From: Torpedo marmorata
Taxonomy: Eukaryota
Length of the DNA: 64,000 nucleotides
Assembly (NCBI GenBank): GCA_977017645.1
Contig: OZ360222.1
Location: forward strand, 34,596,001-34,660,000
Direction of reading: 5' to 3'
Under the pieces are notes generated by a model. That model saw nothing but the letters and a program-made list of their open reading frames with translations, ran no database searches and was not told where the DNA came from. The position numbers and the translations under genes were made by a program. Positions 62 to 36,100 of the stretch are shown here, in pieces; the first letter of the stretch is position 1; every line of letters starts with the position of its first letter.

Positions 62-165
62 CACATCCTTACTGCAGGGTAGCTGTGATCCGACATAATC
101 TATAATTATACTGCCTTCGTCGGTAACCTCAAAATCACCAGGAAAGACCATTTCTTCACAGCCTT
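62..165 (-). CDS. KIF28: KIF28 exon 20 ([23 protein letters not shown]...)
   Basis: tgtag acceptor, gtaagt donor, 104 nt, phase 1 to 0; later exons lie outside the window. Confidence 0.8.
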
Positions 166-12100: not shown

Positions 12101-15100
12101 CTGTTGTGGTCTCCTCTACATCGGAGAGACTGGACGCAGACTGGGAGATCGCTTTGTTGAGCATCTCGGTTCTGTCCGCTGCAATAGCATGGATCTCCCA
12201 GTGGCCACCCATTTCAATTACCCATCCCATTCCCTTGCTGACATGTCTGTCTATGGTCTCATGCACTGCCAGACTGAGACCACCCGCAAATTAGAGGAAC
12301 AACACCTCATCTTCCGACTGGGCACCCTCCAACCGGATGGCATTAATATCGACTTCTTTGGCTTTCGTTAAAATCCCCCCCCTTCACTTCTTCCCCCAGC
12401 CTCTCCCTTCCTTGTCTCTTTTTGCACAAACATGATAAATTCTTACCTCGTCCCTTATCATATCCAATTAACACCTTTTGTTGGTCTGGATTCCTCCCCC
12501 AGCCAGCATTGTCTGAATTCTGAGATTTCCTGCTTCTGGCTCATCCTGCTTATTCCTTGAAGAAGGGCTCAGGCCCGAAACGTCGGCAATATATTTTTGC
12601 TTTTTATGGATGCCGAAAAGACCGGCTTGATTTCCTCAAGCATTTCGGTGTGTTTTTACTACAATCACAGCGTCTGCAGACTTTCGTGTTTCACTCAGAA
12701 GGAAATGAAAGCCTAATTTACCAAGATTAGGTCCAAAATGGAGAATTTTTGCTGGATAAAGTATTTGCATTTTACTAAACTTTGCTTTGAAATTGTTGAT
12801 CCACTCGTTTGTAAAAGCACAGAAATATATTTATCATATACTTTAACAAGGTAGAAGGGAGAACATTCTGCAAGACACCTTTTAGAATGGAACACGTCAG
12901 GCTGTGTTTTAAGAGTGAGAGACCTACGGTCCTACCAGATGTGCAAGCTGAACTTTGGTATCAACGAGGACTCCGTTTAAAATCACTCTGGCTTGTCCAT
13001 GTGGCTCTAGGGTTACTTTGCTGTTCTGGTTTGTGATGGTGGCATGTTTCTCAGCAATACTGTATGAGAAAAATGACATGCAGTGGCCCAATAAACCACA
13101 TTCTTTCATGGAATAAATACTTCTGGATATATACACAGCACCACATTGTATAGATAATAGGATTTTAAAACCTCACACCACCACACATCAAACCATTGTT
13201 CAGTGGTTCATTTATCACACTTTATCTGTTTAAAATATTTTTCAAATTTTCTATGAAAAAGTATCATCATCTTTGCCTCAACTATAACACAGCATTCAAA
13301 ACTCCAAGGACCCAGTGTAGAAAAAATTATAACCTCATTCTTTTATTTACTATTTTAATTTCATGACCCCTTATGATTGCAACCCCCGCCCCCCCGCCCC
13401 CCACATACACACAATAATTAACTTAAATGTTTTACCTCAATTACTCTATCAAGGTCTTTTGTAATTTTATCCAAAGCTCTCTCATCTCTTTTGCCACAGT
13501 GTAAACCTTCTCAGGCCCTTCTCTTGTCAGAACGATCATTGCCCTCTCAGGGACTGCTTTGATGAAGTTTTAATGCGTGCTTTTGATGTCCATTCCTCAA
13601 CAGTGTACCCTCATCTGAATGAGCAATAACTGCTTTCCAAACAATATTTGAAACATGCCCTTAGGAACTTCTTTTCCTTTTTTTTTTTTTTACAGTTCTG
13701 CTAATAAAACTAAAATTCTGGGGTTTATCGGCTTTAAAATGTTAGGGAATTGTTAATTTGAACCCCTATTTTAGCTCTGCCTTCCCAGTTATTTCATTAT
13801 CTTTACGAACATAGAACGTTACAGCACAGTACAGGCCCTTCAGCCCACGATGTTGTGCCAACCTATGTTAAACCTACTCCACGATTAATCTAACCTTTCC
13901 CTCCCTCATGTGCCTATCTGAGTCTTTTAAATATCCCGATTGTACCAGCCTCCACCACCACTCCCGGCAATGCATTCCAGTCATCCACCACTCTCTGTGT
14001 AAAATAAACCTACCTCTGACGTCTCTCCTAAACCTCCCTCCACTCACCTTAAACAGATATCCTCTGTATTGGCCATTGCTGCTCTGGGGAAAAAGGTGCT
14101 GGCTGTCCATCCCATCAATGCCTCCAAAATTTATACACCTCTATTAAGTCACCTCTCATCCTCCAAAGAAAAAAAACCCTAGCTCGCTCAAACCATTTCA
14201 CAATGAGTCTATTCTAACCATTGTTTTCTCATCAAGTCATTCCACAGTAAGTCACAAGTCCCGCTTGCAGCCTCTTCTGTGAATAGTGGGATGAGGTGAG
14301 AAGCACTGATGCACAGCTGAGCCGAATGCCATCTTACCCTGATGACAACACTGGTCAGTAATGCTGTGACGGAGACAGAATTGTAACCCTTCTCAACAGA
14401 CATGACTGAGACTGGCTGTTTCATTACCAAGGATCAGCCAACTTTAAAACCGTTTGATATCAAGTCAGTACTTTCTCCCCCCATTTGAGCTATGAAGTTG
14501 CACTCTATAACACTAACATCAAATAATCTGAGTTTAAGTCATACGTTCACATATTGATCACTTTCAATTATTATAAAAATGGATTGTTACTTTTTGGAGA
14601 AATTTCCACTTGGCATTCCCACAACACCCCTGTATTTCTTGAAAAAATTTGTTCCCGTTTCCACATACCCCAAGCCTCGAATAATAATTGCCCGTGGAAA
14701 ATTTCCAGATTGTCCCACGACAGATTCTCCTGGAACAAAGCACAAGCATGCAGAAGTTATTTGTTCCATTCGAAATATTAGTGATGCAGACAGACAGCAG
14801 GCACGTTGTATTCTTAATGAGGCTTATATTCACTGAAGTTTAAAAGAATGAGAAACCAATAAAATTCTAACAAGAATATTGAACTGAACATAGGGATATT
14901 CCGAATGGAGACACGAAAGATCGCAGATACTGGAAACTTGATGAAGGGTTCCGACCCAAATTGTTGACAATTTCTTTTCTTCTGCTGATGCTGCTCCAGC
15001 AGGACATTCCTGATGGCTGGAGAGTTCAGAACCAGGGGTCACAACCTGGGCGGCACGGTTAGCGCAATGCTGGGTTTGAATCCGGCGCTGTCTGTAAGGA

Positions 15101-18100
15101 GTTTGTACGTTCTCCCCGTGATCTGCGTGGATTCCCTCTGGGTGCTCTGGTTTCCTCCCACCTTCTAAAACGTACGGGGTTGTAGGTTAATTTGGGTGTA
15201 ATTGGGCGGCACAGGTTTAAATGGCCGGAATTGGCTTCTACCATGCTGTAAATAAAATTTGAAAACATTTAATTTAAACCTCAGGATGCAGGGTATGCCA
15301 CTGATCATCAAGATCAGGAGAAATTTGTGAACCCAAAGGGTTTTGAACTTGTGGAATTCTCTACGACAGAAAGCAAGTCATTAAATATATTCGAGAGGTA
15401 GTTCGATATATTTGTCAGTGCTCAAGGGATATTGGGGGGGCAGGGGGGGAAGGCAGGAACAGGGTACTGAAGTGAATGATTAGACATGATTGCAGTGATC
15501 AGTAGAATAAGCCAAACCAAACAGCCTATCACTGCTCCTATTTTGTACATTGAGTGGAGGAAAATATGTAAACCAGAACTTCCCCTGGTTGTAAAAAAAG
15601 TAAAAGTAACTACTGGGAGTCATAGAACATTACAGCACAGTACAGGCCCTTTGGCCCACAATGTTGTGCCGGCCCATATATACTTACCAAAGAAAGCTAA
15701 ACCCTCCCTACTTCATAACCCTCTATTTTTATTTCATCCATGTGCCTGTAGTAGAGTCTCTTAATGCCTCTATAGTTCCAGCCTCCACCACCACCCCTGC
15801 CAAGGCATTCCAGGCACCCACAACTCTGTGTATAAAAACTTACCCCTGATGTCTCCCCTCAACCTTCCTCCCTTCACTTTGTACAGATGTCCTGCCCTTG
15901 GAAAAAGGTGCTGTCGACCTTATCTATGCCTCTCATAATCTTGTAGACCTCTATTAAGTCTCCTCCAGTCCTTCTTTGCTCCAAAGAGAAAAGCCCTGGC
16001 TCTGCTAACCTTGCCTCATAAGACATATTTTCCAATCCAGGCAACATTCCGGTAAATCTCCTCTGCACCCTCTCCATAGCTTCCACATCTTTCCTGTAAT
16101 GAGGTGACCAGAACTGAACACAATATTCTAAATGTGGTCTCACCAGAGATTTATAGAGCTGCAACAATCACCTCATGACTACTGAACTCAATCTCCCGAT
16201 TAATGAAGCCCAGCATCTCATCGGCCTTCTTAACTTTCCTATCAACCTGCGCAACAACCTTGAGAGATGCATGGATTTGAACTCCAAGGTCCCTCTGCTC
16301 TTCCACACTGTTAGTATCCGACCATTAACCCTGTACTCAGCCTTCAGGTTTGTCCTTCCAAAATGCATTACCTCACTCTTATTTAGATTGAACTTAGTCA
16401 TAAAACATTTGATTGCATTGGTTCAGATGCTGTTTTATCCACAGTGTCAACCAATCCAAATAGATTCTCCTCAAGACAAGGTATGAAAATGCGTAAGATT
16501 TGTGTTGAAATGCAAGTTGGCCGCAGCCCAGGTGAAGATCAAACCAAACAGAAAGAGCAGCAAGTAAAACCTGGACTTGATCAGAACACAGCAGCAGTGT
16601 TAGAGGCCAGTACCATCCTGGATGAAGTGCCTGACAAAGGCCGAGAGCTGTGGATCCACGTTGACGTTCGACAGATACGGGAACAACTGAATCATGAACT
16701 GTTCCTAGAAAACAGAGGCAAAAAGCTCACTGATGCTTTCCATTAGATCTCCGACTCAACCCAGCTTGGTGACCACACAATCCTGTGGTAATTAGCACAG
16801 GATTTGCAAACCTAACGAAAGGATGTCAGAAATGAACACGGATGTTCCAAATCACAAACAATTTTCTTACATTTCAGCTGGTGGTTTAGAATTTCAGCCT
16901 TTCTTTTCAAACTTCTGTGTACTGCGATGGCAGTACTCCCCTGCAGGAATTCTCTGGCAGTGGTTATATGCTGTTAGGATTTGTAACACCCATTTCTTTC
17001 CGAGTCCTAAGTATCCTGACTTTACTCCAGTCTCTGATGAGCTACACAAGTGCCCTGGTACAGTTTTGACTGTGTATTTCTAGGCTTATAAAAATCAACA
17101 CTTTAAAAAAAATAAAAAAAAATAGTATATGTATTTTTATGGAAACTTTTTTGAAATTAAAGATCATTTTCCATATATTAAATATTACAAGATATAAGGA
17201 TAATGATCCATTTCCAGCTGAATGTTCCATCAATTTGTCCTGATTCTGATGAAAGGTCATCTGAAAAGTTATCCTTACCTGCATTAGGCTTGCGAACTGA
17301 TGCTTCCATTCCTTCTGCGCTTTCTCAAGCCGTTGCTCCCAAGACGTCTGAATCTCCACCATCTGGAGCTCGTTCTCGGCCAGCAGGCGCCGTAACTCCG
17401 CTGGTGAGGCAAGGACAGCACGCTTTAGAATTAGATCCACATGTGATGGTGAGGCATGAGATACCTCAACAGAGGGCAAGTGTGAGGGGTCATTGAGAGG
17501 ATGGAAGGGGGGGGGATTTTCTGTTGGAGGGGATGAGAAGATGGTCAGTGGGATGAAAAGTACTAGGTGTAGCAGATTAAGGAATGCTGCAATTGTTTGT
17601 TTTAACTCATATTTTGGATCATTCTAGTTAAGTGCCAGCTCCCTCATATTCACAAATGGCCACCCTTTCCTTGATTTTGTGGTAACAGATCAGCAAACCC
17701 GATCTGATTGTGAATTTAGCTTGAGGACTTTCACCAACTAACTTCATCTAAAAAGACACATTAGACCACAGTGCTGATGAATTAAGAACTAAAACCATTA
17801 CCTTGTACTTCAGCAGCCAGAGGTACCTACCTGTTTCCTCCTCCACCCTTTGTCCAGAGTTTCTAATCTTAGTAATCTTCAATCGCAGCTTGGCATTCTC
17901 TGCCTTTAGCTCTTGAACAAGTCGCTTCGTTGCATTTTCATTTATTACAGCCTTGTTCTGAATACTTTTTGTCCTTTGGGCATTGAGGAGACACGGAAAC
18001 ACAATGAATAGGGAGATTAATCTGTATGATTCCTCCAGTCTGTTCCATCTTTGAATTGTCCATTAGCCAACTCAGAGGAGCGAAACACAGAAGTCTGAAG

Positions 18101-21100
18101 ACACTGTGATTGTAGTAAAAGCACACAGAAATGCTGGAGGAACTCAACTGGTCTCGCAGCATCCATAGGAGGTAAAGATATATTACCGACGTTTCAGACC
18201 TGAGCCCTTCTTCAAGGTATACTTATATACCTTGAAGGGCTCAGACCCGAAACGTTGGTAATACCGTATATACTCGTGTAAAAGTAGAGGTTGTTTTTTT
18301 TTTTTAAAGACCATTTTTAACGTTAAATTTATGGGGTCAACTATTACATGAATACTACTTTTGACCACGGTAAGTACCTGCATTAATTCGAGGCATTGGG
18401 AGTTCCGATGAGTGGGTGGGTGGCGAGTCTGCGTTCGGGGCGTCGGGAGCTCCGATGGGCAGGCGGCTGGGTCCTAGGTGAGATTCCGCGGTCGAGGCGT
18501 CGGGAGCTCCGATGGACGGGTGGCCGGGGCCTAGGTGAGAGTCCGTGGTCGATGCGACGGGAGCTCCAATGGACGGGCGGCTGGGGCCTAGGTGAGAGTC
18601 AGCGGTCGAGGCGTCAGGAGCTCCAATGGGCGGGTGGGTGCTGGGGCCAAGGTGAGAGTCCGCGGTCGAGACGTCAGGAGATCCGATGGACTGGCGGCCG
18701 GGGCCAAAAATAGGAGGGTCGACTTTTATACAGTATTGACTTTTACACGAGTATGTACGGTACATCTTTACCTCCTATGGACGCTGTGAGACTGGCTGAG
18801 TTCCTCCAGCATTTACTGTGTGTTTTTACATTGGCCAACTCAGTCTTGAATCTCTGAATAGCCTCTGGAGCTCCTTGGGGGAAAATTTTCCAAAGATTCA
18901 CATACCTCTAAGAAAAGAAGATCCTCCTGATCTCCATTTTAAGTAGCTCAATGGACTGATCTCTGGAGCCAAGCAGTGAATATTGGTTTATTCTCCATTG
19001 CAGTACTGAGGAACAGGCACAGCGTCAGAAGTGCCATCAATCTGATGACAAGTCAAGACCCTATCTGCCTTGTTGACAGTGTAAAAAAATTTCCTGATAA
19101 CTATTCAAAATTCTTTCTGGCCAATATTTATCCCTCAACTAAAATCACAAAAAAAAAGATTTACTCATCATTGCATTCCCGAGACTGAGAACTAACTGAC
19201 ATGAGCTAAGAGTTAAGGGGCAGAGGTTTAGAGGTAACATGAGGGGGAACTTCTTTACTCAGAGAGTGGTAGCGGTGTGGAATGAGCTTCCGGGAGAAGT
19301 AGTGGCGGCAGAGTCAATTTTATTATTTAAGAAAACGTTGGACAAGTATATGGATGAGAAGGAAGTGGAGGGTTATGGGCAGGGTGCAGGTAGGTGGGAC
19401 TAGATAGGAATGTTTGGTTCGGTGCGGACTGGAAGGGCCTAATGGCCTGTTTCCGTGCTGTAATTGTTATATGGTTATATGGTTATAACAAATAGCTCAC
19501 ACTTAACTAGAACCACTTCAAAAGAACCTCAGTGGTAGTAAAGCACTTTGGAATGGAAAAGTCAGATTTAAAAATGTGAGCAAATTTTCTCAATTCTTTC
19601 CCAATAAAACTCCCCGATAGTGTTACCTTTCAGCATAACGTAACGTTGAGAGAGTTTCTTCGTAACAAATATCAGCTGGACTGACTGTTGCAATCTGTAA
19701 GAGAATTCATGATTCATTTTGAAAGCTGCACTCATCAAGTGGAGGGAATGGTAGTGTGAGAATGGATCACTGATGATAACATTAATCAGTCCAAGTGGGG
19801 TGGATACAAAGTGGTTGTCTGCCAATGGATAAAGAGGATAAAGGATAAAAGTTCTGTTTTTCTTACCCAAGTGAATAACTCAACATTTATCCTTGTCACA
19901 TGTTTGTGTACACTTAATATGTCTAAATTCTCCTGAAGTCTCTTTGTATCCACCTCACAACCTCAGTTGGAACTTTTACCTTCAGTTCTCCTAGCGAAAT
20001 TATTGCTATGTATTGTGAGTAGCTGTGGCGAGTCACTCATCACCACTTGCCACCCTGGAAAAGATCCATATTTCCTTCTCTCGGGGCCCTGCCTGACAAC
20101 CAATTTTCAATTTATGCCGTACACAAAAGTGCTGGAGAAACCCAGCATCTATAGGAAGCAAAGGGTAACCAACGTTTCAGGCCTGAGCCCTTCATCAAGG
20201 TATGAGCAAAAAGCAGGCAGGTACAGAGTTACAGGGAGAGAACAGTTAGTACGGAGCAAAAGCAAGTTTATTTTATTTATGTAAGATACCCTCAATGTTG
20301 AAGACAAGTGAAGGGCCAGTACTACATAAAAGACACTGTTTGACCTGCTGAGTTTCTCCAGCATTTGTGTTTTTTACTTTAAGCAAACCCTTTCAGCTCA
20401 CTGCAGATCGCAAAGTCTGCCCATTACCAGTAACACTCCGTTTCACTACATTAAATATCAAGTTACATTTGTTGACTTTAAAAACTTTTTAATTGAATTA
20501 CCGGTATTAAAGATTTTTAAAATTACAATTTAAAAAAATTAGAAAGCATTAGAAACAACTGTTTTTCACATCCAATGCATACAAACTCACAGGTTAGATA
20601 CAGGGAATGTCCTTTCAACCCCAGCCCTCCGCTCTACCATTTTATAAGATTGGAGCTGATCTGTTTGGAACTCCGAATCCCATCTCCTCACTTATCAAGT
20701 ATCTATCTACTTCTGCGTTAAAATGTTTAAGAGCTCTACCTCTGATGCCATTTAGGAGAGAACTCTAAAGACTCAACCTGTTGAGAGAATTTTTTTAAAA
20801 ATCACTTCATCTCTGTTTTAAATAGGCAAGATCTTTTCAAACGGTGATCCCTCATTCTAAGTTTTCCCACACAAAGAAATTTCCTGTCAGTGTCCATGCT
20901 TCCATTATTCCTCAGGGTTTTACATGTATCATTCAAGTTAAATCAAAGTCTTAACTCCAGCAGATGCCAACCTTTCTCATTAGACAACCTACCTATTTCA
21001 GTTATTAATCACATAAACCTTTTCAAAATTGTTTCCAACACATTAACATCCTTCCTTAAAGCAGGCCAATACTGAACAGAGTACTCCAGTGGTGATCTCG

Positions 21101-24100
21101 CCTGCGCCCAATGTAACTTTTGACATGAATTCAACTCCGCCAGCAATAAACAGTAGCACTGATTGCTTTCTTGATTACTTGCTGATCGTGCATAGTAGCC
21201 CTTTGTGTCAAACACTGACACCAGGAACTCTGTCTCAGAGTTCGACAATCTTTCACTACTTGAGAGCTACGTTTTATTTTTCTCTGCCAAAATGGACAAC
21301 TTCATATTTTTCACATTATACTCCATTTTTCACATCTTTGCCAAACTTAATTTCACACCGTTCCTGTCTGTGTCATCAGCAAACGTAGCAATGATACCTT
21401 CATTGCCTCCATGTGGGTCATTTCAGCACCAGTTGTTGTGGCCGAGCATTCATCACATGTTGACAACCAGAGAAAGACCAAGTTATGCCTTCTCTATTTC
21501 CAGTCCATCTCAAATCCTCCTTCTACAACATGAGCTTTTATGTCCCCACAATATTGATGCATCACCTTAACAAATGTTACAAATGTACCAAGTATGGTAC
21601 ATCCTTAATCCACAGCACAAGTTACTTGTTTAAAAAAAATCCAATATATTGGTTAAACATGATTTCCCTTTCACAAGTCACGGTTAGCCCAGTGATTAGT
21701 GCAACGCTGTTACAGTGCCAGTGACCGGGGTTCGAATCCGGCACTGTAAGGAGTTTGTATGTTCTCCCTGTGTCTGTGCGCTCCAGTTTCCTCCCACCCT
21801 TCAAATTCGTACGGCGTTGTAGGTTAATTGGGTGGCACGGGCTCGTGGGCTGGAAGGGCCTGTTATCGTGCTGATTGTGCAAATTTAAATTTTTAAATTT
21901 GTCCATGCTCACTTTGCCTGATCACCATGAATTTTTCTACATGCTTGTTTTAAAACTTTAATAGCTTCTAACATTTTCTTCATGAAAGATGTCGTTAATG
22001 CCCTGTCGTTTCCTACTTTCTCTTGTCCTTTTTGAATCAAGGAGTTCCATTTGTCATTTGAAATCAAACAGATTCAGTTGATACTTGTTATCTGCTGGAA
22101 CCTTTCTCAAACGCAGGGAATTTTCAATAATTAAAGCCAATGTTTCAACCATCACACTTGCCATTTCAGGAATTTGAACAATCACATGTTTAGGCAGGAA
22201 TCCCAAATTTCCTGGTAGTTACATGGGGGGGATGCAGAATTGCTTGCAATTCTGAGGAAAATCCGGACCATCGTGTCACACAAGACTTTAAACACTGAAT
22301 GCATTAAGATTAAGCTAAAGAGAATATATGAGGCACAGTTCAACAGGCCAGGAAACTGAGAAAGAGAAATGACAAGAAAGAAACAAAAAGCAACCCTTGT
22401 GGATTTTTTTTCTCAGGTAGGGCCAGGTTCCTGAGCATTTACCATCAGAGTCTTGCTGTTTCCACCCAGTGCAGGCTGCAGTAGTTTAGTAAGTGTGGAG
22501 TTCCTGTAGGGCACATGGAGCATCCTCTTCCCCATAGCGATTTCTGCTAAGGCACTGGGGAGAAACATAGAATAAAAAGACGTAATATTCAATGCCGTCA
22601 ACTCTAAACCACAGCTGGTGGGTGAACAAATAATCCAGAGTCAAGGTTCCTTTTATTGTTACATAATAATACATTAAAAATGTAACATGCACGAGAATTC
22701 AAATCCTAACATGTCATTTTGTAATAAAAAGACACAGAAATGCCTGTCTCGCAGCATCCATAGGAGACAAAGATATATTACCGACATTTCGGAGAGAGAG
22801 AGAGAGATACTACGGGGAAGAGGGGGGGGGGGAGGAAGAGGTTTAACAGAAGCCAGAGAAGTCGATGTTAATGCCATCCGGTTGAAGGGTGCCCAGACGG
22901 AAGATGAGGTGTTCCTCCAATTTGCGGGTGATTTCAGTCTGGCAGTGTATGACACCATGGACAGACATGTCAGCAAGGGAATGGGACGGGGAATTGAAAT
23001 GGGTGGCCACTGGGAGATTCAAGCTATTGCGGCAGACAGGGCCGAGCTGCTCAACAAAGCAATCTCCCAGTCTGCGCCCAGTCTCTCCGATGTAGAGGAG
23101 ACCACAAAGGGAGGACCAGATGTACTGTTTCACTTCATGCCAGTTTGTAAATCTGGGTTCAGTTTAAAATGATAAAAATTAAAAGCAGAGATCAGGAAAA
23201 TTCATCAGTGCTCTGTCAGGGAGTCATCATGGTCGAATTAAGTGTCCTAATGTATCAGGTGAATAAACCTTCAGTACATAGCTGGTCTGGTCTGTACCTT
23301 TGGTTTCAGTGAGCGCCTCACCTGTTACAGGCTTATGTTATTCTTAATATTTATTTTATATATATTTCTTAGTAAAGTTACTGTGGGGGTTTGGAAACGG
23401 GAAAGACACACAGAACACCATTTTGAAGCAGACGCCAAGGCACCTAAGTTCAGAGCCATAAAAGCCTTGTTATTGTTCCATTGAAAACCTGAAACAATGG
23501 AATGTTTGCTCAGAGACACCTGTTCAAACAAAAAGGCCATCTGCTAGATGAGTCGTGCTTTTGGGAAAATGAAACTAAAACAGTATTGCTCAAGCCAGTC
23601 ATGTGATTTAAGACTTCAGAAAAGCAGCATTTTTAGTATCAAACCAGAATCATCTGGAGACTCAAAAGAGAATCAAAGTGACTTCGGGGATGATGGTCAC
23701 TTCTGCTGTTTCTCCTTGTAAAAGGGGATACTGTGGCCATTGTAATGGTCACTTGTGACTGACCCATATCTGGGTAAAGAAAGCAAGATCATTCTTGTAT
23801 CTGGATCATGACCATTTTGATGGTTACTTCGTCTGACTTTTTGCCTGGGTCTGTGAAAGCATCGTGGAGGTCACAAGCTTTGTAACCCCGACACAAGGGG
23901 GAAGTTGTGACAAATCATTTGTATGAATTCGTGAGTTTTGAGAAGTCTGATGTCTCAACTACATAATTACTTCTGAACAAGTTTTTTTAAAGAAGTTCTA
24001 AGTTTCAACACAAGATTTCTAAGACTGAACTTTGAATCGACTTTTCAGAATTGTGCCAAAGCTATAATGGTTTGGGTAGTTCACACATACATATACATTT

Positions 24101-27100
24101 GCGCATAGTTGGGGTTAAGTTTAGAGTTAAGTAAGATTTTATATTATTAATAAAAATTATTGTTTTGAAGATACCATTGTCTTGGTGAATTTCTATTGCT
24201 GCTGGTCTATGACGTAACACACCTGATGACATTTCCCAGAGTGGTCAGGCTGAGATTGATGGCAGTTCCCTCTCTCAGACGATCCCCCTCAGAACCCGAG
24301 GACTTTTGACGCTCACTGCCAGCCAGATCCACCAGGTTTATGTTCGACTGTTTGGTTAGGTGGTCTTTTAAAAACACCTGTGTGGAAGCACATTGAATAA
24401 AAGCAGGCAGATCTGTCAGTTATAAAGTCCAACTAGCTTTCTTGATCACTTTTAAAAAAAAAGTTTTGGTGACTGTTGGCCTGTGCACCTCCTCATGCCC
24501 CTTCTTCCCTCTTCTCCTCTCTCCCACCCCCACCTTTTTATTCAAGCACCTGTATGCTTTTGCTCATACCTTGATAAAGGGCTCAGGCCCGAAACGTTGG
24601 GCCTGCTGAGTTTCTCCAGCACTTTTGTGTATTGCACAACTATTTTTTTTGTAAGTGAGCTTCAATAAATAATCAATAAACTCATGATGTTATTTAGCAG
24701 ATATTTTAAAATAAACAATATTAACGATACTTCACAGTAACTTGGAACACAGCAGTGCGCGAGTCCTTGAAATTGGTCACCTCTGATACTTCTCTATAAC
24801 ATAGAACACTACAGCACCATACAGGCCCTTCGGCCCTCTATGTTGTGCCGACCCATATGTTCCTTAAAGAAAGAGTACTAAACCCACCCTACCCCGTAAC
24901 CCTCTGTTTTTCTTTCATCCATGTGCCTGTCTAAGAGTCTCTTAAATGCCCCCAATGTTTCAGCCTCCACCACCATCCCTGGCAATGCATTCCAGGCACC
25001 CACAACTCTGTGTAAAAAAAATAAACTTACCCCTGATATCTCCCCTAAACTTCCCTCCCTTCACTTTGTACACATGTCCTCTGGTGTTTGCTGATCCTGC
25101 CCTGGGAAACAGGTGCTGGCTGTCCACCCTATCTATGCCTCTCATAATCTTGTGGACCTCTATCAAGTCTCCTCATCCTTCTGCGCTCCAAAGAGAAATG
25201 TCCCAGTTCTACTAACCTTGCCTCATAAGACTTGTTTTTCAATCCAGGTAACATCCTGGTAAATCTCCTCTGCACCCTCTCCATAGCTTCCACATCCTTC
25301 CTATAATGAGGTGACCAGAACTGAACACAATACTCTAAGTGTGGTCTTACCAGAGATTTGTAGAGTTGCAACATGACCTCTCTACTCCTGAACTCAATCC
25401 CCCTTTTAATGAAGCCCAGCATCCCATAGGCCTTCTTAACTATCCTATCAACCTGTGCGGCGACCTTGAGGGATGTATGGATTTGAACCCCAAGGTCCCT
25501 CTGTTCATCCACACTCTTAAGTAACCGACCATTAACCCTGTACTCAGCCTTCTGGTTTGTCCTTCCAAAATGCATCACCTCACACTTATCCGGATTGAAC
25601 TCCATCTGCCACTTTTCTGCCCAACTCTGCATCCTGTCTATATCCTCTTGTAACCTTCGACAACCTTCAGCTCCATCCACAACTCCTCCAACCTTCGTGT
25701 CATCCGCAAACTTACTGACCCATCCGTCCGCCTCTTCATCTAGGTCATTTATAAAAATCACAAAGAGCAGGGGTCCCAGAACAGATCCTTGCGGCACTCC
25801 ACTAGTCATCGACCTCCAGGCAGAATACTTTCCTTCCACTACGACTCTCTGCTTTCTTCCTGCAAGCCAATTTTTTTTCCACACAGCCAAGGTTCCACTG
25901 ATCCCATGCCTCATGACTTTGTGGATGAGTCTCTCGTGGGAGACCTTGTCAAATGCCTTGCTAAAATCCATGTCGACCACATCTACCGCCCTACCCTCAT
26001 CAATTTCTTTTGTTACCTCCTCAAAAAACTCAATTAGGCTCGTGAGGCACGACCTTCCCTTCACAAAGCCATGCTGACTATCTTTGAGTAGACTGTACTT
26101 CTCCAAATGCTCAGAGATCCTATCCTGAAGAATCCTCTCCAATAGTTTGCACACCACTGACGTAAGACTAATTCCCAGGATTCTCCCTATTACCTTTTTT
26201 AAACAAGGGGACTACATTTGCCATTCTACAATCCTCCGGCACCTCCCCTGCAGCCAAAGAGGATTCAGAGATCATAGCTACTGCCCCAGCTATCTCTTCT
26301 CTCACTTCCCACAGCAACCTGGGGTATATCGCATCCGGCCCCGGGGACTTATCAATCTTGATGTTTTTAAGAAGATCCAACACTTCCTGTTCCTTAATCT
26401 CCACATTGTCCAGCACACAAGGCCTGTTCTATTTAGACCTCACCCTGATCAAGGTCTTTTTCTCTTGTGAATACTGAAGTAAAGTATTCATTTAGGACCT
26501 CCCCAACCTCTTCCGCCTCCAGGCACATGTTGCCTCCTTTATCCTTTAGCGGCCCCACCTTCATTCTCGTCATCCTTCTGTTCTTCACATACACATAGAA
26601 TGCCTTGGGGTTCTCCTTCATCCTACATGCCAAGGCCTTCTCATGCTCCCTTCGAGCTCTCCTAAGTCCTTTCTTAAGCTCCTTCCTGGCAACCATATAT
26701 TTCTCATGAGCCCTTCCTGTTTCCTGCTTCCTATATCTAACATATGCTTCCTTCTTCCTCTTGATTAGTTGCCTCACCTGTTTTGTCAGCCACGGTTCCC
26801 TTTTCCGACCATCCTTTCCTTGTCCCAGTGGGACAAACCTATCCTGAACCCAGCACAAGTGGTCCCTAAACCTCCTCCACATTACTTCTGTGCTTTCACC
26901 CTTGAACATGTTTCCAATTTACTCTCGCTAGTTCCTGCCTCATCCCTTCATAATTAGCCCTTCCCCAGTTAAGCGCTTTCCCATTTTGTCTGTTTTTATC
27001 CTTTTCCATATGTTGAAGCTCAGGGAGTTGTGGCCACTCTCACCAAAAAGCTTCGCCACCGAGAGGTCCGCCACCTGACCAGGTTCATTACCCAGAACTA

Positions 27101-30100
27101 GATCCAGTATGGCCTCTCCTCTTGTCGGCCAGTCCACATACTGTCATGAATCCTTCCTGAACACACCTGACAAACTCAGCCCCTTCCATCCCTCTTGCAG
27201 TCAATATTAGGGAAGTTGAAGTCACCCATAACTACAACCCTGTATTTCCCGCACCATTCCAAAATCTGCCTGCTTATCTGCTCCTCGGTGTCCCGAGGGC
27301 TATTTGGGGCTCTATAGACTACTCCCAGCACAGTGATAGCTCCCTTCCTATTTCTGACTTCCACCCAGTGGACACTCCCTCTGCAGCGTCCTCCCTTTCC
27401 ATAGCCATGACACTATCCCTGACCAGTAATGCTACTCCCCTCTCTCCTTTTCTACCTCTCTTCCTATTCCTTTTAAAACACCTAAACCCTAAACTGCATC
27501 AGCCCTTCCTCCAGCCAAGTTTCAGTAAGGACCACAACTTCATAGTTCTACGTACTGATCGATGCTCTAAGTTCATCCCCTTTATTCCTAATACTCCTAG
27601 CGTTGAAATAGACACATTTCAACCCCTGTAACTGGCTACATTTATGTTTTGTCCCCCGCCTGTCCTTCCTCACCAACTCAGAACACATATCATCATCCTT
27701 TTGTCCTTCTATCCTAATTTCTGCACTCACATTCTGATTCCCACCCCCCCTGCCAAACTAGTTTAAACCCTCCCCAACAGCTCGAGCAAACCTGCCCTTT
27801 AGGATATTGGTCCCTTTCCAGTTCAGGTGCGGCCCATCCTTTTTGTACAAGTCAGACCTTCCCCAGAAGAGATCCCAATGATCCAGAAATCTGAACCCCT
27901 GCCCCCACTCTTCAGCCACGCATTCATCTGCCACAATTTCCTGTTCCTACCCTCTCTGGCGCATGGCACAGGCAACAATCCCGAGATTACCACCCTTGAG
28001 GTCCTGCTTTTTAACTTCTTTCCTAACTCCCTATACTCCCTCTTCAGGACCTCATCCCTACTCTTATCTATGTCATTGGTCCCCACGTGGAGCACGACAT
28101 CTGGCTGCTCACCCTCCCCCTCCAGAATGCTATGAACTCGATCAGAGACATCCCTGACCCTGGCACCTGGGAGGCAACATACCATCCGGGAGCTCCGATC
28201 TCGTTCACCAAACCGCCTATCTGCTTTCCTAACCAATGAGTCCCCAATTACTATTGCTCTCCTCTTCTCCCCCCTTCCCACCTGAGCCGTGGGGCCAGCC
28301 TCTGTGCCAGAGACGTGACCACCCCGACTGGTCCCTGGTAGATCGTCCCCCCCAACAGTATCGAAAACAGTATACTTGTTGTTGAGGGGAACGGCCACAG
28401 GGGTGCTCTACACTGTCTGCCTCTTCCCCTTCCCTCTCCTAACAGTCACCCAGTTACCTGTCTCCTGACTTTTAGGGGTGACTGTCTCCCTGAAGCTCCT
28501 CTCTATCACTGCCTCTGCCTCCTGAATTCATCCAGCTCCCGCTCCTTAACAGTCTCCCAGGAGCTGCAGCTGGATGCACCTCTTGCAGGTGTAGTCATCA
28601 GGGACAATTGTGTTGTCCTAGATTTCCCACATCCTGCAATCGGAGCATTCGACTGCCCAGCTGCTGACTCCATTAACTCTTCCTAATTAAATTCAAAGAT
28701 CTTACCTTAGTGGAATCAAGCTCGTCCGAAGCCTCGTGAGCCAAAGTCCCACTCCTACACTGGCTGCTCTCCACTGGCCGCTCTGCTTGAGCTACTCCTC
28801 ATTTTACTTGTCACTACCCCTTGTTAATTACTACTCCCACCAATCACCGTCTGTTTAACCCTTAACGTGCTTTTTAAAGGCACTCACCTCCAGCTGACTC
28901 CCGACAGTCCCAGCTCTCTCGAGTCCCACACTCCTCATAATGGTCCCGAGATGTATAAGTGGAGTATTGGATAAAAATGCCTTTATTTTGATGGCAAGAT
29001 CTGGATTCTGTCAATCATCTGTTCTCTACAGGATTGATTATTCCATAGTTCCATTATGGTCTTTTTTTAAATATTTATTGTATTAGTTTAGTGATTTTGG
29101 TAATATTGATTTTGAGCTAAGTATTGACCAGAACACCATGGGAAGTTCAACTGCTCTGCTTTCAGGAGCGAGGTGGGGGCTCTTAATTCACATACTTGCA
29201 ATGGAATTTAACTCCATAGTCTTCTGACTCAGGAGGCAAGAGTGTCATCATGAATCCATGGCTGACATCAAAAGCTTTCAAACCATGACTGCAGGGCTTG
29301 AGTTGTAAGGAGAGGCCAGAAAGGCTGGGACTTTACTCCCTGCAGCATAAGAGGCTGAGGGGGGAACTTTATAGAGGTTTATAAAATCATGAGGGGAATA
29401 TAGAAGGAGAATAGTCACAATATTTTCCCCAGAATAGGAGAGTCTAAAGCTAGAGGGCATTGAAGGTGGAAAGATTTAAAATGGTTCTATAGATAGAGTA
29501 AATGCAAGTAGTCTTTTTCCACTTAGGTTAGGTGAGATACCAACCAAAGGACATGGGTTAAGGGTGAAAGGGGAAAGTTTAGGGGGAACATTCAGAGGAA
29601 CTTCTTCACACAGAGAGTAGTGGGAGTGTGGAACGAGCTGCCAGCTGAAGTGGTGAATGCGGGCTAATTTTCACATTTAACAAAAATGTGGACAGGTAAA
29701 TGGATGGGAGGGCTATGGACTGGGTGCAGGTCAGTGGCACTAGGCAGAATAATAGTTTGGCGCAGACTAGAAGGGCCGAAGGGCTTGTTTTCTGTGCTGT
29801 AATGTTTTATGTTCTGTGGTTCTATGGACTTGGAGCAGCTCATATGGAGGGTGGAGGGATATGGAATCAGCTGCCAGAGGAAATGGTAGAGGCAGGTACC
29901 ATTACAAGGTTTAAAAGACATTTGGACAGGTACATGGATAGGAAAGGGTTGGAAGGATATGGGCCAAATGCAGGCAAATGGGACTAGGTTAAATGGGCAA
30001 CTTGGTCAGCCTGGATGAGTTGGGCTGAAGGGGCTGTTTCTGTGTTGTACAGCTCTATGACTCTATAAACCAGCCATTCTCAACCAGGGGCCATACAGCC

Positions 30101-33100
30101 CCCTGCTAGGGGCCACAACACATTTAATGGGGGCCATGGACTGAAACCATAAAGTATTTATATTCTTTATGTAGTAGGTTGGAGAGAAGTACAAAAGAAA
30201 CCAACTAAACTTGACAGCTTCACAGGGAAGGGGGGCCATAAACTTTGAGCAGAGTCCGAAGAGGACCATAGTTTAAAAAAAATGGTTGAGAATGGCTACT
30301 ATAAACAATAAACCCTGAAGCATCAGCGAGAGGGTACTGAATTCCACAGGCTGTCTATATAATGAGCTGCTTCTGAAAAAGGCCAGTTTAACTTTGTGTT
30401 GTAACTTATTTACTAGTATTGGCAAACTTGAATCTTCCCATTAGCTGGAGAGTCCGGCCGGAGCCAGGGGTCCCAGCCCCAGGTCATGGCTGCGGAGAAT
30501 CAGAATCAACAGTTCCAGGTGCCCTATCTGTGGCTTCTCCACAACAAAAGGCAGCGGGAGACCGTCATTAAATATATTCAAGGAGGAGGTAGATATATTT
30601 CTCACTGCTGAAGGGATCAGGATATGGGAAGAAAGCAGGAGCAGGACACGGGAGTGGATGATCAGCCATGATTGGGTTAAATGGTGGACCAGGCCTGAGG
30701 GCAGAATGGCCTCACCCTGCTTTTATTTTCTACATTTCCACAACTTTTATGGGGAGTCGATTCTGGAACATGCTAATTAATAGCTTAGCAACTTGTTTTT
30801 GCTGCATTCCAGCTCTGCTTCCTTTACCAAATCTGTGCTCCCTGGGAAGAGTTTTGCCTCTTTTACCCTTCCATCAAATCTCTCCCTCATTTCATCAATC
30901 CGAGGTTGTCTGATATTATCGATCTCTTTCGTCCCTACCTAAGTTCCTTTATGCTCTCAAGGCCTTAACTTCCTGAAGCAGTTACCAGAAGTAATTTAGT
31001 GTCCATTGTTTTATCGAAGTTTTGTGTAGCTTCCCATCCCACTTAAAAGTCGAAGATTTTGCTGCCTTCAGAGTTGTGTGTACGTGAAGTGTCATTGCTG
31101 TTCCTCAATCCCTTGAAAATTAGTTTTATCTTACTTTGCCCTTTTCTTCCACCAAAAACTGAGATTTAATGTCATGAAGAGCAAAGTTCATCCTCCACAA
31201 GCTGTCTCTCATTCAGGACTGCTTCCGTCCCCCGTGTCTGTCTCACATGGCCAAGTTCCCCATCATCTGCAAAACTGCGTCAGTGGTCTCTCGAGCAGTT
31301 CCTTAAGTTAACGGTCAACTTTGGTCAGGTTATTTCAACTGACAGCAGTCACTGACCAAAATAAAAACCCTGCTGGAACTGGTGTTGCCAAATGACTCGA
31401 CAAGCTTGTACCTGCTTGAACTGGACAGTGATGATCATATGTGAACGACTGCTGGTCATGTTGATGTTGGTGGATGCTATGCTCCTCTTCCTAGTCCCTT
31501 CCTCCATCAACTGTTCAATTTGGTTGTAGTTTTCACAAGGCACTGATTTCATGTCCTCTACATAGAAACCCCTTTGGGAGCTTTCTCGCACTCTAAGACC
31601 TCCAGGATGCTTACTTTTGGACAATAAGTCAATGACCTATGAAAGAGATTAGATGTAAATATAATAATTTATGTGGACTTATGGAGAGTTTAACAAGGTT
31701 CCAGCCACTGTGTCAGGCTGTATGACCCAGAGACTGAAATGAAGTCCTACATTACAGAAAGGCAGCTGGACAATTATCAAACTTGTCAAAATTGCTGTAG
31801 TTTTTCTGGCAAAAAGTCAAGGAGACTCCCTGCATAGACTCAGAAGAGAATGATTTTAAATAAAATCCTTAATCACCGATTTTCCTTGAGATGTCAATTT
31901 TTTTCTGATTAGTTTGGCTTTTGATCTTTCTATGCTTTTTGCTATTTAGTTTCAATTTTTTTTTAACCTTCCTTCTGCCTTCCTACCATCACCCTGGACT
32001 ATCCATCCAGCAGTTCTGGGCAAACACTCTAATCCACTCCTTATTGGCTCGTATTTGTGTCCATCATTTATGACGTCACTGTGCTGCTAAATCACACAAA
32101 GCCTCATCTAGCCTCAACCTTGCGCCCTTTTCCATTGGATAGTTCAGGTGACTGACTGTCTGATGGGCAGAAGTGGAGAACCTTCAGCACACAGTCACAG
32201 TTATGGGCAATAAACTGCCAAACCCCCAACAATTAAGGAGAGAAAAATAATTTGGCATGGAACCCATAGTTTGAAATCGAGTTGATGGATATTAAATGCC
32301 AGGACCAAGTTTTAGTCTCGGTCTGTCAATGCTTGATACGTTACTGCTTAAGAACAGCAGTACTTGGAAAGGAACTTTTTAGCCACTGGACAGATTAGCA
32401 AATAGAGATTTGTGTAACCATTTCTACACAGAGCTTGGCCTTCACAGAGAATCTATGGGAACATGTCCAGACTACGACTGTGCAAGATATCACCGTGCTT
32501 GAAAGGCAACATGAAACTCCTTTTCTAATGAAATGAAGTACTGTTGACATGTAATATGCTATTTACTTATTTATTTCACTGGAACTAATCCTGCAGGTCA
32601 TTTTATAGATGAGGCGAAAACGTTCTTGATAGTTTAATTTCTAATAAAATATGCACATCTGGAGAATTGATGTTTAACACAGTTGAAAGTCCGTTCAACC
32701 TTGGTACATGCCTTTTATTTTGCAACAACAAAGCAGCTAGCTAATGCACATACTGATGGCAAAATTGAATACTACATTTTGGTGTCAGTAAGGAGAAAAC
32801 ATTACCTTTTCATTGTAGATTTCCAACATGCTGAAATAAACCTATAAGGAGAATAAAAGAAATTTGGGACTTGTATTACACTCAGCAAAATAATCCATAA
32901 TCTCCTTTACATCATTAACCTCTTCTTGTACTTCAGATGGTGATTCACTACCACTGCTTTCAAACAATTAAATTTTTACCATTGACATTTGGTTAACTCA
33001 AACCAATTATGATGAACTGGGTTAAATCAGAAACCATAATAGCAATGGTTAAGACGTTTGTTAACGATCATAAATCTAAATTTGCAACGTTATGTTGCAG

Positions 33101-36100
33101 ATTTCCAAACATTTCTTAGATCACACAGAGTATGGTGTTCAGGAACGAACGATGTGGCAGCAAAAGTGAAAGTGCAGAAGAGATACACGAAGATATTACC
33201 AGGAATAGAGGGCTTTAGTTACCAGGAGAGATTGGATAGGCTGGGTTTATTCTCACTGCAACGCACGGGGCTACAGGGCAACATTCATATAGCTTTATAA
33301 AATCAAGAGGGGAGGTAGATTGTCAGACCACGCACATATTGGAGGAACACCACCTCATCTTCTGACTGGGCACCCTCCAACCGGATGGCATTAATATCGA
33401 CTTCTCTGGCTTTCGTTAACCCCCACCCCCCACAACTTCTTCCCCTGTCGCCTTCCCCCAGCTCTGTCTCTCCCTTCCCTGTCTCTTTTCGTACAGACAT
33501 GATAAATTGTCACCCCTCCCCTTATCATATCCAATTAACACCTTTTGTTGGTCTGGATTCCTCCCCCAGCGAACATTGTCTGAATTCTGAGATTTTCTGA
33601 GATTTCCTGCTTCGGGCTCATCCTGCTTATTCCTTGAAGAAGGGCTCAGGCCCGAAACGTCGGCAATATATCTTTGCTTTTTATGGACACTGAAAGACCT
33701 CCAGCATTTCGGTGTGTTTTTACTACAATCACAGTGTCTGCACACTTTAGTGTTTCACTCTAGACAGTCAGTCCATGGGAGTCTAGAACTGGAGGGCACG
33801 GTTTAATGTGAGAGGGGAGCAATTTAAATCTGAGGGTTAAGTTTTTTTCCCCCCCACACAGAGGGTGGTGAATATTTGAAACCAGCTGCCAGAGAAGGTA
33901 GAGGAGGCAGAAACAATTACAATGATTAAAAGGCATTTGGACAGATGTTTAGATTGGAAAGATGTAAAGGAATACAGACCGAATATGGATTAGTGTAACT
34001 CGGTATCACGGTTAGCATGGACATGGTGGATCAAAGAGCCTGTTTCGATTTTGTGACTATGAATTAACACCCTGAATTCATTCAAAAATATTGTGCAGAG
34101 AACCCAATATGTACTAATGTTCATGGGGGATGCTGTTCACTTGTATTTAATCCTGTGGCTGTCAACTTCCAGGCTGAAGGACTAATCTTTTCCAGTTAAT
34201 TTGGCGATATCCTGTGCCCAAGCATTTTGTGGTACATTTTTACCACACCAAAACCAGTTAGTTAATTTGGGAGACACCTGTTCTCCAATTTAAGGTGGAT
34301 GCTTGATTCCCCACTAAACTTATTCTGCTTCAGCCCCACTCTCCCTTCATACCTTCACATCTATTCCTACACTTTTTCATTTTTATTTTAGTTTTTCTAA
34401 TTTCTTCCTGATTCTCCTTTCCATTTATTTTTAGTCATCCCTTATAGAATTTAAACGTACAACACGCTAACAGGCCATTTCAGCCCACGAGCCTGTGCCG
34501 CCCAATTACATCCAAACAACCTACAACCCCCAGCACATTTTGAACGGTGGGAGGAAACCGGAGCCCCTGGGGAAAACCCACAGACACAGGGAGAACGTAC
34601 AAACTCCTTACAAATAGCGCCGGATTAGAACCCCGTTCGCTGGCGCTGTAATTGCTAACTGCTACGCTAACAGGTCCCCGGGCGCCTGCCTACATTTTGC
34701 TCATACCTCGATGAAAGGTTCAAGCCCGAAATTTTGGTTATGTATCTTTATCTTTGCTACATAAAGTACTGTCTGACCGGTTGAGTTTCTCCAGCATTGT
34801 GTTTTACTTCAATCACGGTGTCTGCAGACTTTTGTATTTTACTTTTGCAAACATTACTAACCCTGTGGTTGTTTGTGTGTTGTGCTCTTCCTGTTCTTGC
34901 TTGGTTTGGATATTTCCACATTAATTCTACCATCCAGCTGCTTCTCTTTCCGCGCCCTCTCCCTCAACCCCCACCATTTACATCGACCTTAACTGCAATA
35001 GATCTCATGAAAAGCTTTTTGGAAGGACAAAGCTAATCTGATGTACCCGTGGAATATTTCATTGCAGCAGCAACAGAATTAACAGGCTGGTTGAGAACAG
35101 TGCAGAACAAAGGTTAAAGCAATTGTACCACAATATTAATGGAACATCTAAACCTGCTGGGAGCGGCACAAACAGGAGCTGGAGCAGGCCCCTCACACCT
35201 GCCCGCCATTTGATGATTGCGGCTGATCTGCCCCAGGCTTCATCTCCCCAGAGCCCATTTCTCTCATCTCTCAAAGATTTTTCTGCATCTTTTGATAAGT
35301 TCCAAACCCTCTCGGGTAGAAAATTTACCTACATTTACAACCTCAGCTCTCAGTGATTATCTCCTCCCCCCCACCCTTTTGATCTTCTACTTTGTTCTGC
35401 TGTGTACATGTTTGAGTTGACTTGCTAGACTGCTCACAGAACAAATCCCTCTCACTGTACCAGGTGGAGTGTGTCAATAAACTTGAACTGGAATGACGTT
35501 CGTTTGACTCTCCCACGAATAGAAGCACCTCAACTACCCTGTCAAGCCTCTCAGGACCTTATTTATTTTCATAAGATCACCCCATGTCAACTTCCAGGAG
35601 AGTTCCTTCTCTACCACAACACGGGCAGCACACTAATCATCTGCAGTGATCTTGATTCCTCATCTTGTCCGTTGTCATCTGAATATCTTAATATTCATGT
35701 TCCTTTAATTTAGCCATCTTGATTTCCCTTTTGTGAGGGACTGATAATTAATGGACCTACTCTTGGGGCTCGGAGGCATCTTTGTGAAGAATCAGCTGTT
35801 CATTGACAACAGTTATCCGAGCAGTTCGCTGGATTTTTTCACCAAGCTTCGGATTTGTTGCAGCAAGTAGCTATAAAAGCAAGGTGGGATCATTGTCCGT
35901 TCCAATCATTTCTATGCAAACATCTTTTAGACATTAATGACAGCCCGACTCTTCCACATGCTCACAATGCACCTCAAAGTTGTTACCTTCTATCAATTAC
36001 ACAGGACAACAAAATTTATTCAAAAGGTTTGCTTCCTGCAAAAAAAAAAAGGGGGATTACGACAGACAACTTCAAGCTGAACACAAAGATAATTTCAGAT

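Follow-up and report, generated by a model that had tools for sequence, protein, structure and literature searches.

A Gmr1-like solo LTR at the exon 6 splice donor of KIF28 in Torpedo marmorata, probably an old and tolerated insertion

The splice donor of KIF28 intron 6 in Torpedo marmorata is interrupted by a solo LTR of a Gmr1-like retrotransposon, and the target-site duplication has left two copies of the donor, with a proximal-to-distal spacing of 901 nt. The insertion is probably a tolerated accident, in which the rebuilt proximal donor is working and the displaced distal donor is a silent decoy. We favor this explanation because the first letters of the LTR rebuild a likely working donor. 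The window analyzed is a 64,000-nt stretch of contig OZ360222.1 (assembly GCA_977017645.1, forward strand, positions 34,596,001 to 34,660,000).

Results

The LTR begins with TGTTACA and ends with CGTAACA, which is the TG...CA form with short inverted termini, and it is bounded by two copies of CACC (Table 1). The first-pass annotation had proposed an 897-bp element with a CACC duplication at the KIF28 exon 6 donor, a donor duplicated as CAG|GTGTGT nearby and CAG|GTGAGG 901 nt away, and an in-frame TAG within five codons of distal-donor use; each of these can be read exactly in the sequence, the exon 6 read-through peptide being R-C-V-T-S followed by TAG (24209-24207). In the distal donor, positions -3 and -2 are the LTR end and position -1 belongs to the target-site duplication. 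An assembly artefact is ruled out by the match of both LTR ends to paralog termini and by the exon-side junction in an independent run.

Table 1. Features of the KIF28 locus and of the inserted LTR (window coordinates)
Feature	Position	Strand	Remark
KIF28 coding exons 1-20	62..41156	-	exons 21-23 in the 10 kb preceding the window (L038)
KIF28 coding exon 6, 155 nt	24223-24377	-	contains switch II DLAGSE, aa 255-260; spliced contig in run X10
KIF28 coding exon 7, 112 nt, intron 6 acceptor	22443-22554	-	joint 22554/24223 in run X10
Solo LTR, Gmr1-like LTR retrotransposon	23323-24219, 897 bp	sense +, antisense to KIF28	paralog and flank comparison
Target-site copy 1, CACC (gene strand G|GTG)	24220-24223	-	last exon 6 base and intron +1 to +3
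Target-site copy 2, CACC (gene strand G|GTG)	23319-23322	-	original intron comes next
Proximal (rebuilt) donor CAG|GTGTGT	24217-24225	-	+4 to +6 supplied by LTR; U1 duplex -7.7 kcal/mol
Distal (displaced original) donor CAG|GTGAGG	23316-23324	-	U1 duplex -11.6 kcal/mol
In-frame TAG, reached when exon 6 reads on into the LTR	24207-24209	-	
AATAAA inside LTR, gene strand	23350-23355	-	stretch also present in paralog L002
AATAAA on LTR sense strand	24149-24154	+	65 nt before LTR 3' end; in both L031 LTRs; likely the retroelement's own poly(A) signal

The LTR is repetitive, with 45 matches from the 40 candidates scored out of 6,092, and a 16-nt pattern from its end has 1,104 exact matches vs 19 for the reversed control. 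Its length here is 897 bp, compared with about 940-970 bp in most paralogs. In all four fetched pairs, two LTR copies surround a retroelement interior, with a primer-binding site (PBS) after the 5' copy and a polypurine tract (PPT) before the 3' copy; the PBS presumably matches tRNA-Pro. Across 30 LTR loci, a PBS-like flank was found in 9 and a PPT-like flank in 4, and the 17 unpaired-looking copies have an exact duplication of 4 bp (8 copies), of 5 bp (2) or none (7). In L033 an ORF with the integrase core (rve) is followed by an ORF with reverse transcriptase (RT) and RNase H, and integrase matches precede RNase H in L031 and L032. L034 is broken up by nested insertions, and the ORF scan covered it up to its last part (L035). 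The SCAN domain (PF02023) was detected in L031 (E 2e-8) and L034 (E 1e-8) and had no match among the scanned ORFs of L032 and L033; a protease domain had no match in the 21 ORFs of at least 120 aa from these decayed element copies. Judged by this domain content, the parent element is a SCAN-bearing retrotransposon of the Gmr1-like type, with integrase before RT. The four complete elements, with paired LTRs flanking a retroelement interior, set beside the single copy at KIF28, bear out the original designation as a solo LTR. An endogenous retrovirus, suggested by the PBS-like flank, is ruled out by the position of integrase before RT and by the lack of room for env (about 500 nt between the RNase H ORF and the 3' LTR in L031), and a DNA transposon or MITE is ruled out because long inverted ends are lacking and paired copies bracket a retroelement interior. 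Gmr1-like elements are reported to have integrase preceding RT/RNase H and to be abundant in fish (bioRxiv 10.1101/2025.03.03.638093), and SCAN was confined to Gmr elements in a frog survey (PMC4131045).

KIF28 is a kinesin-3 and the ortholog of KLP-6. The gene has 23 exons encoding 1,045 aa with 0 internal stops, and P-loop, switch I and switch II are all present in the motor. The best matches of the exon 6 peptide are chondrichthyan KIF28 proteins (98%), and the whole protein is 92.3% identical over 1,040 columns to P0001 and 74-88% identical to seven other chondrichthyan KIF28 proteins, as expected from the initial assignment of the donor to KIF28 exon 6, which is the sixth of 23 coding exons. 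The P0001 cluster comprises 9 members, all of them isoforms from a single species. The neighboring gene is ELYS/AHCTF1, and presumably KIF28 adjoins ELYS in the human genome too. None of the 120 matches listed for the exon 6 peptide is identical to it, and no transcript-derived protein of this organism was recognized among them. The exon 6-exon 7 junction (24223 to 22554) was found in one contig of run X10, taken by guess to be RNA, from organism C.

With four outgroups, 17-29 derived amino-acid changes were assigned to this lineage vs 39-47 to the P0001 lineage, a test that spans the entire branch; the post-insertion share of that branch is perhaps a third to a half, as estimated from an LTR divergence of 2-3% vs a pairwise flank difference to organism C of 6-13%. 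No excess of change was found in the protein beyond exon 6 (Fisher p 0.67-1.0). A gene dead since the insertion would be expected to have accumulated 45-67 changes and 2.7-4.1 stops (P of none 0.02-0.07). Given the intact frame, the lack of excess amino-acid change and the absence of those stops, a strong loss of function (null) is not supported, with the proviso that protein conservation is blind to partial loss of mRNA.

Organism C has the empty site, as shown by a DNA contig from run X3. This contig aligns at 23081-23252 and resumes at 24220-24425, with 62 letters between the aligned blocks compared with 967 in the window, which answers the question of whether relatives have the insertion in the case of this one. 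One contig of organism A continues from exon 6 across the duplication and into 26 nt of LTR, with 5 differences in 665 flanking letters (~99% alike); a shared junction is only suggested, because 26 nt falls below the 31-letter bridging rule. For organism B (run X2, 55% read), no contig covered either junction. The comparison covered 4 of the 15 listed runs (organisms D-G and further runs of B and C were omitted), and such contigs can show presence, not absence. None of the listed runs was on record as RNA; three were taken by guess to be RNA, and X10, the one of these three that was compared, carries no evidence about expression.

The copy at KIF28 differs from its paralogs by a K2P of 0.041-0.088 in all 29 compared, although scoring covered 40 of 6,092 candidates and a closer paralog could have escaped, and the paired LTRs of the four complete elements differ by 0.038-0.046. 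These divergences exceed by roughly tenfold the diversity of 0.002 reported within one shark species (PMC10587355). In the assembly, the site is single copy without a second (empty) allele. Judged by sequence divergence, the insertion is old; an epaulette-shark rate, borrowed from another lineage, gives an absolute date of 29-43 million generations, a figure that is probably too high. The early suggestion of a polymorphic allele is not supported, given the paralog and LTR-pair divergences and the suggestive junction in organism A.

Donor strength was expressed as U1 duplex energy, a crude stand-in for MaxEntScan. On this scale, the insertion weakened the intron 6 donor by about 3.9 kcal/mol. 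Among the 21 readable donors of the gene, 7 are stronger than the proximal donor, 1 is equal and 12 are weaker. The distal donor is the strongest of the 89 GT sites in intron 6. A stronger decoy GT lies within 1 kb of the donor in 12 of 20 other KIF28 introns; in intron 12 the real donor scores -7.6 and a decoy at 621 nt scores -11.8 kcal/mol, and intron 5 contains an identical CAG|GTGAGG. The largest KIF28 coding exon found is 275 nt, and use of the distal donor would give an exon of 1,056 nt. G+5 and T+6 of the proximal donor had been described as happening to arise, but both ends of the LTR family start with TGT and every insertion register from +1 on keeps GT. The idea that only this register is survivable is likewise ruled out, since +1 to +7 keep GT and +1 to +3 all leave GT...AG. 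The LTR ends match the paralogs and no later change has occurred at either donor. A literature search for the donor 9-mer returned a primer as its only match.

Insertion at the donor is an event at about the chance rate, seen through survivor bias. One LTR 3' end with an AG|GTR flank was found vs about 2 expected from the motif alone, which rules out splice-donor targeting by the family in the 3'-end orientation, and 0.1-1.0 twin-donor insertions per genome would be expected from this family, assuming 150,000-250,000 donors.

Discussion

The most probable history begins with the ancient insertion of a full-length Gmr1-like retrotransposon, which would have landed three bases inside the KIF28 intron 6 donor and was likely then reduced to one LTR by LTR-LTR recombination. 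The opening TGT of the LTR would have rebuilt CAG|GTGTGT, which is likely still the donor in use, and the displaced donor downstream likely became a silent decoy. We infer use of the proximal donor from its sequence, because the sole spliced contig comes from the empty-site organism. Exon definition over the 155-nt exon may favor the near donor over the 1,056-nt alternative, and the insertion, being almost harmless, would have become fixed by drift. Any rare transcripts from the distal donor would reach a stop after five codons and likely be degraded by nonsense-mediated decay.

A constitutive loss of transcripts is unlikely. Under this explanation, the near donor steadily loses transcripts to the far donor, to intron retention or to the AATAAA at 23350-23355, and KIF28 is mildly reduced without regulation. 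The weakening of the donor from -11.6 to -7.7 kcal/mol and the strength of the far donor within intron 6 are in its favor, and the in-frame TAG with 16 downstream junctions would make the product a target for decay. In human, KIF28 carries a pseudogene annotation, so a reduced dose may be tolerated. A review names the human gene KIF28P (PMC8077471). However, 12 of the other 20 introns have the same geometry, the alternative exon would be 1,056 nt, and there is neither a sign of relaxed selection nor a compensating change at either donor since the insertion.

It is quite improbable that the insertion created a working recursive splice site through which the LTR erases itself from the pre-mRNA. 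The near donor would splice to an AG formed by the last CA of the LTR and the duplicated G (23323-23322), removing 901 nt and regenerating CAG|GTGAGG, which would then splice to exon 7 and give a normal mRNA. A YAG|GT core, which the first-pass annotation did not mention, is present (23324-23316), the empty-site junction would be restored exactly, and recursive splicing through intronic ratchet points is known in human genes (PMC7175933). The candidate acceptor is nevertheless poor: its tract is purine-rich, with a pyrimidine fraction of 0.35 vs 0.55-0.85 in all 22 real KIF28 acceptors, and its score of -2.6 is below all 22 (lowest -2.4) and is reached by 27% of 3,163 intronic AGs. Another AG lies 11 nt upstream, and a search of 50 nt found no YTNAY branch motif. 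The paralogs have the same tract, so it shows no adaptation. The KIF28 introns contain three other YAG|GTRAG cores in 46 kb, and the intron is only 1.7 kb. If recursive removal were nonetheless true, the 24-nt stretch from the distal donor to the next GT at 23298, which opens with a stop, would be a ready-made poison micro-exon, the origin of recursive sites would become datable, and TG...CA elements at donors would have a general route to survival. In the titles and abstract openings searched, which included few subscription journals, we found no description of an LTR with a target duplication that reproduces a donor or gives rise to a recursive site. SOS splicing (PMC12779559) does not fit, since it requires the inverted terminal repeats of DNA transposons.

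A regulated switch is very improbable. Here the far donor would be chosen in particular tissues or stages, exonising the antisense LTR and lowering KIF28 via decay; the in-frame TAG is followed by 16 later junctions. The strong far donor and the immediate TAG are present, and despite the age of the insertion the far donor has stayed intact. However, at 2-4% decay a 9-mer has a 69-83% chance of remaining untouched, so its intactness does not demonstrate selection; the far donor is indistinguishable from ordinary decoys, strong decoys being the norm in KIF28; and chance accounts for the origin, both donors simply having been made by the insertion. A recent, still-segregating insertion is extremely improbable: although the evidence comes from one assembly and one other junction contig, with 40 of 6,092 candidates scored and contigs that cannot show absence, the nearest scored paralog is at K2P 0.041, the paired LTRs of all four complete elements are at least 0.038 apart, the junction is seemingly shared with organism A, and the assembly lacks an empty copy.

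The probably tolerated insertion is a natural example of LTR survival at a donor: GT and G+5 are preserved or re-created by the TGT terminus, and a second donor remains as a by-product of the 4-bp duplication; as a case of survivor bias, its interest is modest. Use of the far site, if true, whether as a recursive intermediate or in regulated decay, would raise its importance, because the birth of the site is datable and the empty-site relative is a natural control.

Compared with known systems, the paralogs are like Gmr1-like retrotransposons in having SCAN, then integrase, then RT/RNase H between two LTRs, and they differ in that protease was undetected in the 21 scanned ORFs, while at KIF28 one LTR remains. 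Transposon insertions in human disease cause exonisation, intron retention and cryptic donors, and resemble the KIF28 case in that a transposon lying on or close to a splice site provides a rival site together with a premature stop (PMC8910135; PMC7175933). Such insertions are recent, damaging and mostly Alu, L1 or SVA, whereas the KIF28 LTR is old, the gene is intact and the terminus repairs the donor. Like recursive splice sites (ratchet points), the distal site has an AG directly before a strong GT donor, but its pyrimidine tract is poor, its intron is short, and it was made by an insertion and is not conserved. In poison exons, an alternative splice choice brings an early stop and is coupled to nonsense-mediated decay. 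The choice of the far donor in KIF28 would also bring an early stop, although as a 901-nt exon extension rather than a cassette, and as a prediction from sequence. In introners and Ds-made introns, a splice site comes from the target duplication; these insertions lie within exons and give rise to new introns. The KIF28 LTR differs in that it is found at a donor that was already there, does not have to be removed separately and has a poor acceptor tract; it is similar in that the duplication copies a splice signal, GT...AG bounds the insert and scarless removal would be possible.

The insertion into the exon 6 donor

The exon at the insertion is coding exon 6 of KIF28, as first annotated: its product is part of the kinesin motor (PF00225), its best matches are cartilaginous-fish KIF28 proteins with P0001 on top (98%), and mapped proteins place 20 KIF28 coding exons in the window and three in the 10 kb before it. 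The adjoining gene is ELYS. The element and its CACC duplication are present in the window sequence with the coordinates and termini originally reported. Read on the minus strand, the four duplicated bases cover the final exon base plus the first three bases of the intron (+1 to +3). The donor is now CAG/GTGTGT, with the element supplying +4 onward, and the original intron start is found again 901 nt downstream as CAG/GTGAGG. Translation past exon 6 into the element gives R-C-V-T-S and then TAG at 24209-24207, within the five codons claimed.

Features of the insertion, of the window and of related loci
Feature	Position	Size	Remarks
LTR element	23323-24219	897 bp	start TGTTACA, end CGTAACA
CACC target duplication	23319-23322 and 24220-24223		flanks element on both sides
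Last part of LTR	24150-24223	~70 nt	high depth
Rest of KIF28 intron 6	22596-23187		very-high-depth repeat in 4/4 sequencing runs compared
Frame in intron 6, minus strand	23163-22846		presumably a Penelope-type GIY-YIG fragment, by resemblance
KIF28 intron 5	25132-28407		long LINE-type RT-like open stretches, gene strand
Pieces similar to the intron 5 stretches	60990-62824
Open frame in KIF28 intron 8	18358-18774		with 57-bp tandem array, 4.9 copies (18425-18705)
39-bp tandem array	46512-47348		21 copies, 89% matches
ELYS/AHCTF1 open stretch, minus strand	45434-47890	819 codons	contains the 39-bp array
KIF28 stop codon, within the 10 kb before window	L038:1882-2079		coincides with end of P0004, a chondrichthyan KIF28; P0001 extends five residues beyond
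Complete-type family element	L034:4991-9326		nested opposite-strand insertions; RT and RT+GIY-YIG matches

We consider it likely that the insertion is old, fixed and tolerated, and that the LTR terminus rebuilt a donor predicted to work. Both LTR ends begin TGT, and GT is therefore kept in every register from +1 on, in either orientation; insertion in registers +1 to +4 results in two donors. With a copy number of 1,085-6,092, and donors assumed to number 150,000-250,000, this family alone should yield 0.1-1.0 twin-donor insertions per genome. One LTR 3' end, the KIF28 copy, has an AG/GTR flank versus about 2 expected from the motif. A donor insertion is a rare event at any one locus, and at the scale of a genome it is nothing remarkable.

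Integrity of KIF28

The spliced frame comprises 1,045 aa and a stop with no internal stops, the intron 1 donor falling unread in an N stretch, and is 92.3% identical to P0001 and 74-88% identical to seven other proteins. With four outgroups, 17-29 derived amino acid changes fall in this lineage versus 39-47 in that of P0001, and the part downstream of exon 6 shows no surplus. A gene dead since the insertion should have accumulated 45-67 changes and 2.7-4.1 stops, and a null is thus unlikely on these counts; a partial loss of mRNA would be invisible to this test. Human KIF28 is a pseudogene. The motor is poorly characterized: in a review (PMC8077471), a single paper is cited, tying KLP6/KIF28P to mitochondrial shape and transport.

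Use of the two donors

Donor strength was measured as U1 duplex energy, a crude measure, in place of MaxEntScan. It is -7.7 kcal/mol for the rebuilt donor and -11.6 kcal/mol for the displaced one, the strongest among the 89 GT sites of intron 6, and this difference is the best argument for the first-pass annotation, which read the insertion as a hypomorphic or polymorphic allele or a poison-splicing switch. It also favors a mild constitutive leak to the far donor, which is nonetheless unlikely: 12 of the 20 other KIF28 introns likewise hold a stronger decoy within 1 kb, and the far donor would require a 1,056-nt exon where the largest coding exon is 275 nt. Vertebrate exon definition disfavors an exon of that length. 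Among KIF28's 21 readable donors, 12 are weaker than the rebuilt donor, one is equal and seven are stronger; intron 5 also contains CAG/GTGAGG.

The final CA of the LTR and the duplicated G form CAG immediately before GTGAGG, a detail absent from the earlier annotation. Were the near GT spliced to this CAG, 901 nt would be lost and the RNA would again carry the donor as it was before the insertion, a recursive path to normal KIF28 mRNA resembling the ratchet points described in PMC7175933. Such removal is, however, highly improbable, because the pyrimidine fraction at the LTR-end acceptor is 0.35 versus 0.55-0.85 in 22 of 22 real KIF28 acceptors, its score is lower than all 22, a rival AG lies 11 nt upstream, a search for a branch motif there found none, and the tract is unchanged relative to paralogs. 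A regulated poison switch, for which the stronger far donor might speak, is very hard to credit: the LTR ends agree with those of paralogs, and neither donor has thus been tuned since insertion, an untouched 9-mer being expected by chance 69-83% of the time.

Empty site and age

No run among the fifteen sequencing runs found was annotated as RNA, and four of the fifteen were compared with the window. In one DNA contig of organism C, 62 letters separate 23081-23252 from 24220-24425, which fits the 66 predicted for an empty site and not the 967 of the window; the insertion is absent in organism C, and the empty site sought in relatives exists. In X10, a run of organism C presumed to be RNA, one contig has 24223 connected directly to 22554. 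This confirms the exon 6 boundary and the proposed junction, for the ancestral donor only, organism C having the empty site. An organism A contig, with five differences in 665 flanking letters, begins in exon 6, crosses the duplication and stops 26 nt into the LTR, below the 31-letter threshold for bridging a junction; it suggests, short of proof, that organism A shares the insertion. The organism B run was uninformative.

The KIF28 copy differs from 29 paralogs by a K2P of 0.041-0.088 (median 0.067) and paired LTRs diverge by 0.038-0.046, which puts decay per copy at about 2-3%, some ten times the within-species diversity of 0.002 reported for a shark species (PMC10587355). With this decay, the junction suggested in organism A and exon 6 present once in the assembly, the polymorphic allele first proposed is not borne out, and the chance that the insertion still segregates is close to negligible.

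A repeat expansion in ELYS

The 39-bp array contributes a 13-residue repeat to the ELYS/AHCTF1 open stretch. Alignment to P0121, an ELYS protein of 2,493 aa, covers 98% of this stretch, versus 43-65% for 11 further ELYS proteins from sharks and rays (2,233-2,364 aa), which suggests a lineage-specific coding expansion.

The element family and known systems

In the animal's own genome (6.2 Gb) the LTR has 6,092 candidates, of which 40 were scored and yielded 45 matches, and a 16-nt LTR-end pattern has 1,104 exact matches versus 19 for the control. In 4 of 4 runs, those of organism C included, the last part of the LTR has about 100-fold or more the depth of its first 380 nt, suggesting a terminus common to a far larger set of elements, although depth is not copy number. 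At 30 loci, PBS-like motifs follow the 3' end in nine and polypurine tracts precede the 5' end in four, so the LTR sense is, by these motifs, the plus strand, antisense to KIF28. Target duplications at the remaining 17 loci are exact 4-bp in eight and exact 5-bp in two, and seven have no exact duplication; both lengths are made by the family (L011, L025, L034-L035).

Transposon-caused splice defects are already known (PMC8910135), and partial coverage of the literature found no precedent with exactly the KIF28 LTR geometry. The solo LTR proposed at first is upheld by paired copies flanking retroelement interiors, and we infer that recombination in a full-length element left it behind. Full-length proviral copies were anticipated; four paired-LTR elements were retrieved, and L031 leaves no space for env. 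Integrase then RT/RNase H was found in three of the four, the fourth being interrupted and scanned in part, and SCAN in two. Published work reports the order SCAN, PR, IN, RT-RH for Gmr1-like elements (bioRxiv 10.1101/2025.03.03.638093) and, in frogs, SCAN restricted to Gmr elements (PMC4131045). Protease had no match in the 21 ORFs scanned in these interiors, the copies being decayed. SCAN, integrase and RT/RNase H follow one another as in the Gmr1-like order, and by this domain order the KIF28 insertion is classed as a Gmr1-like solo LTR.
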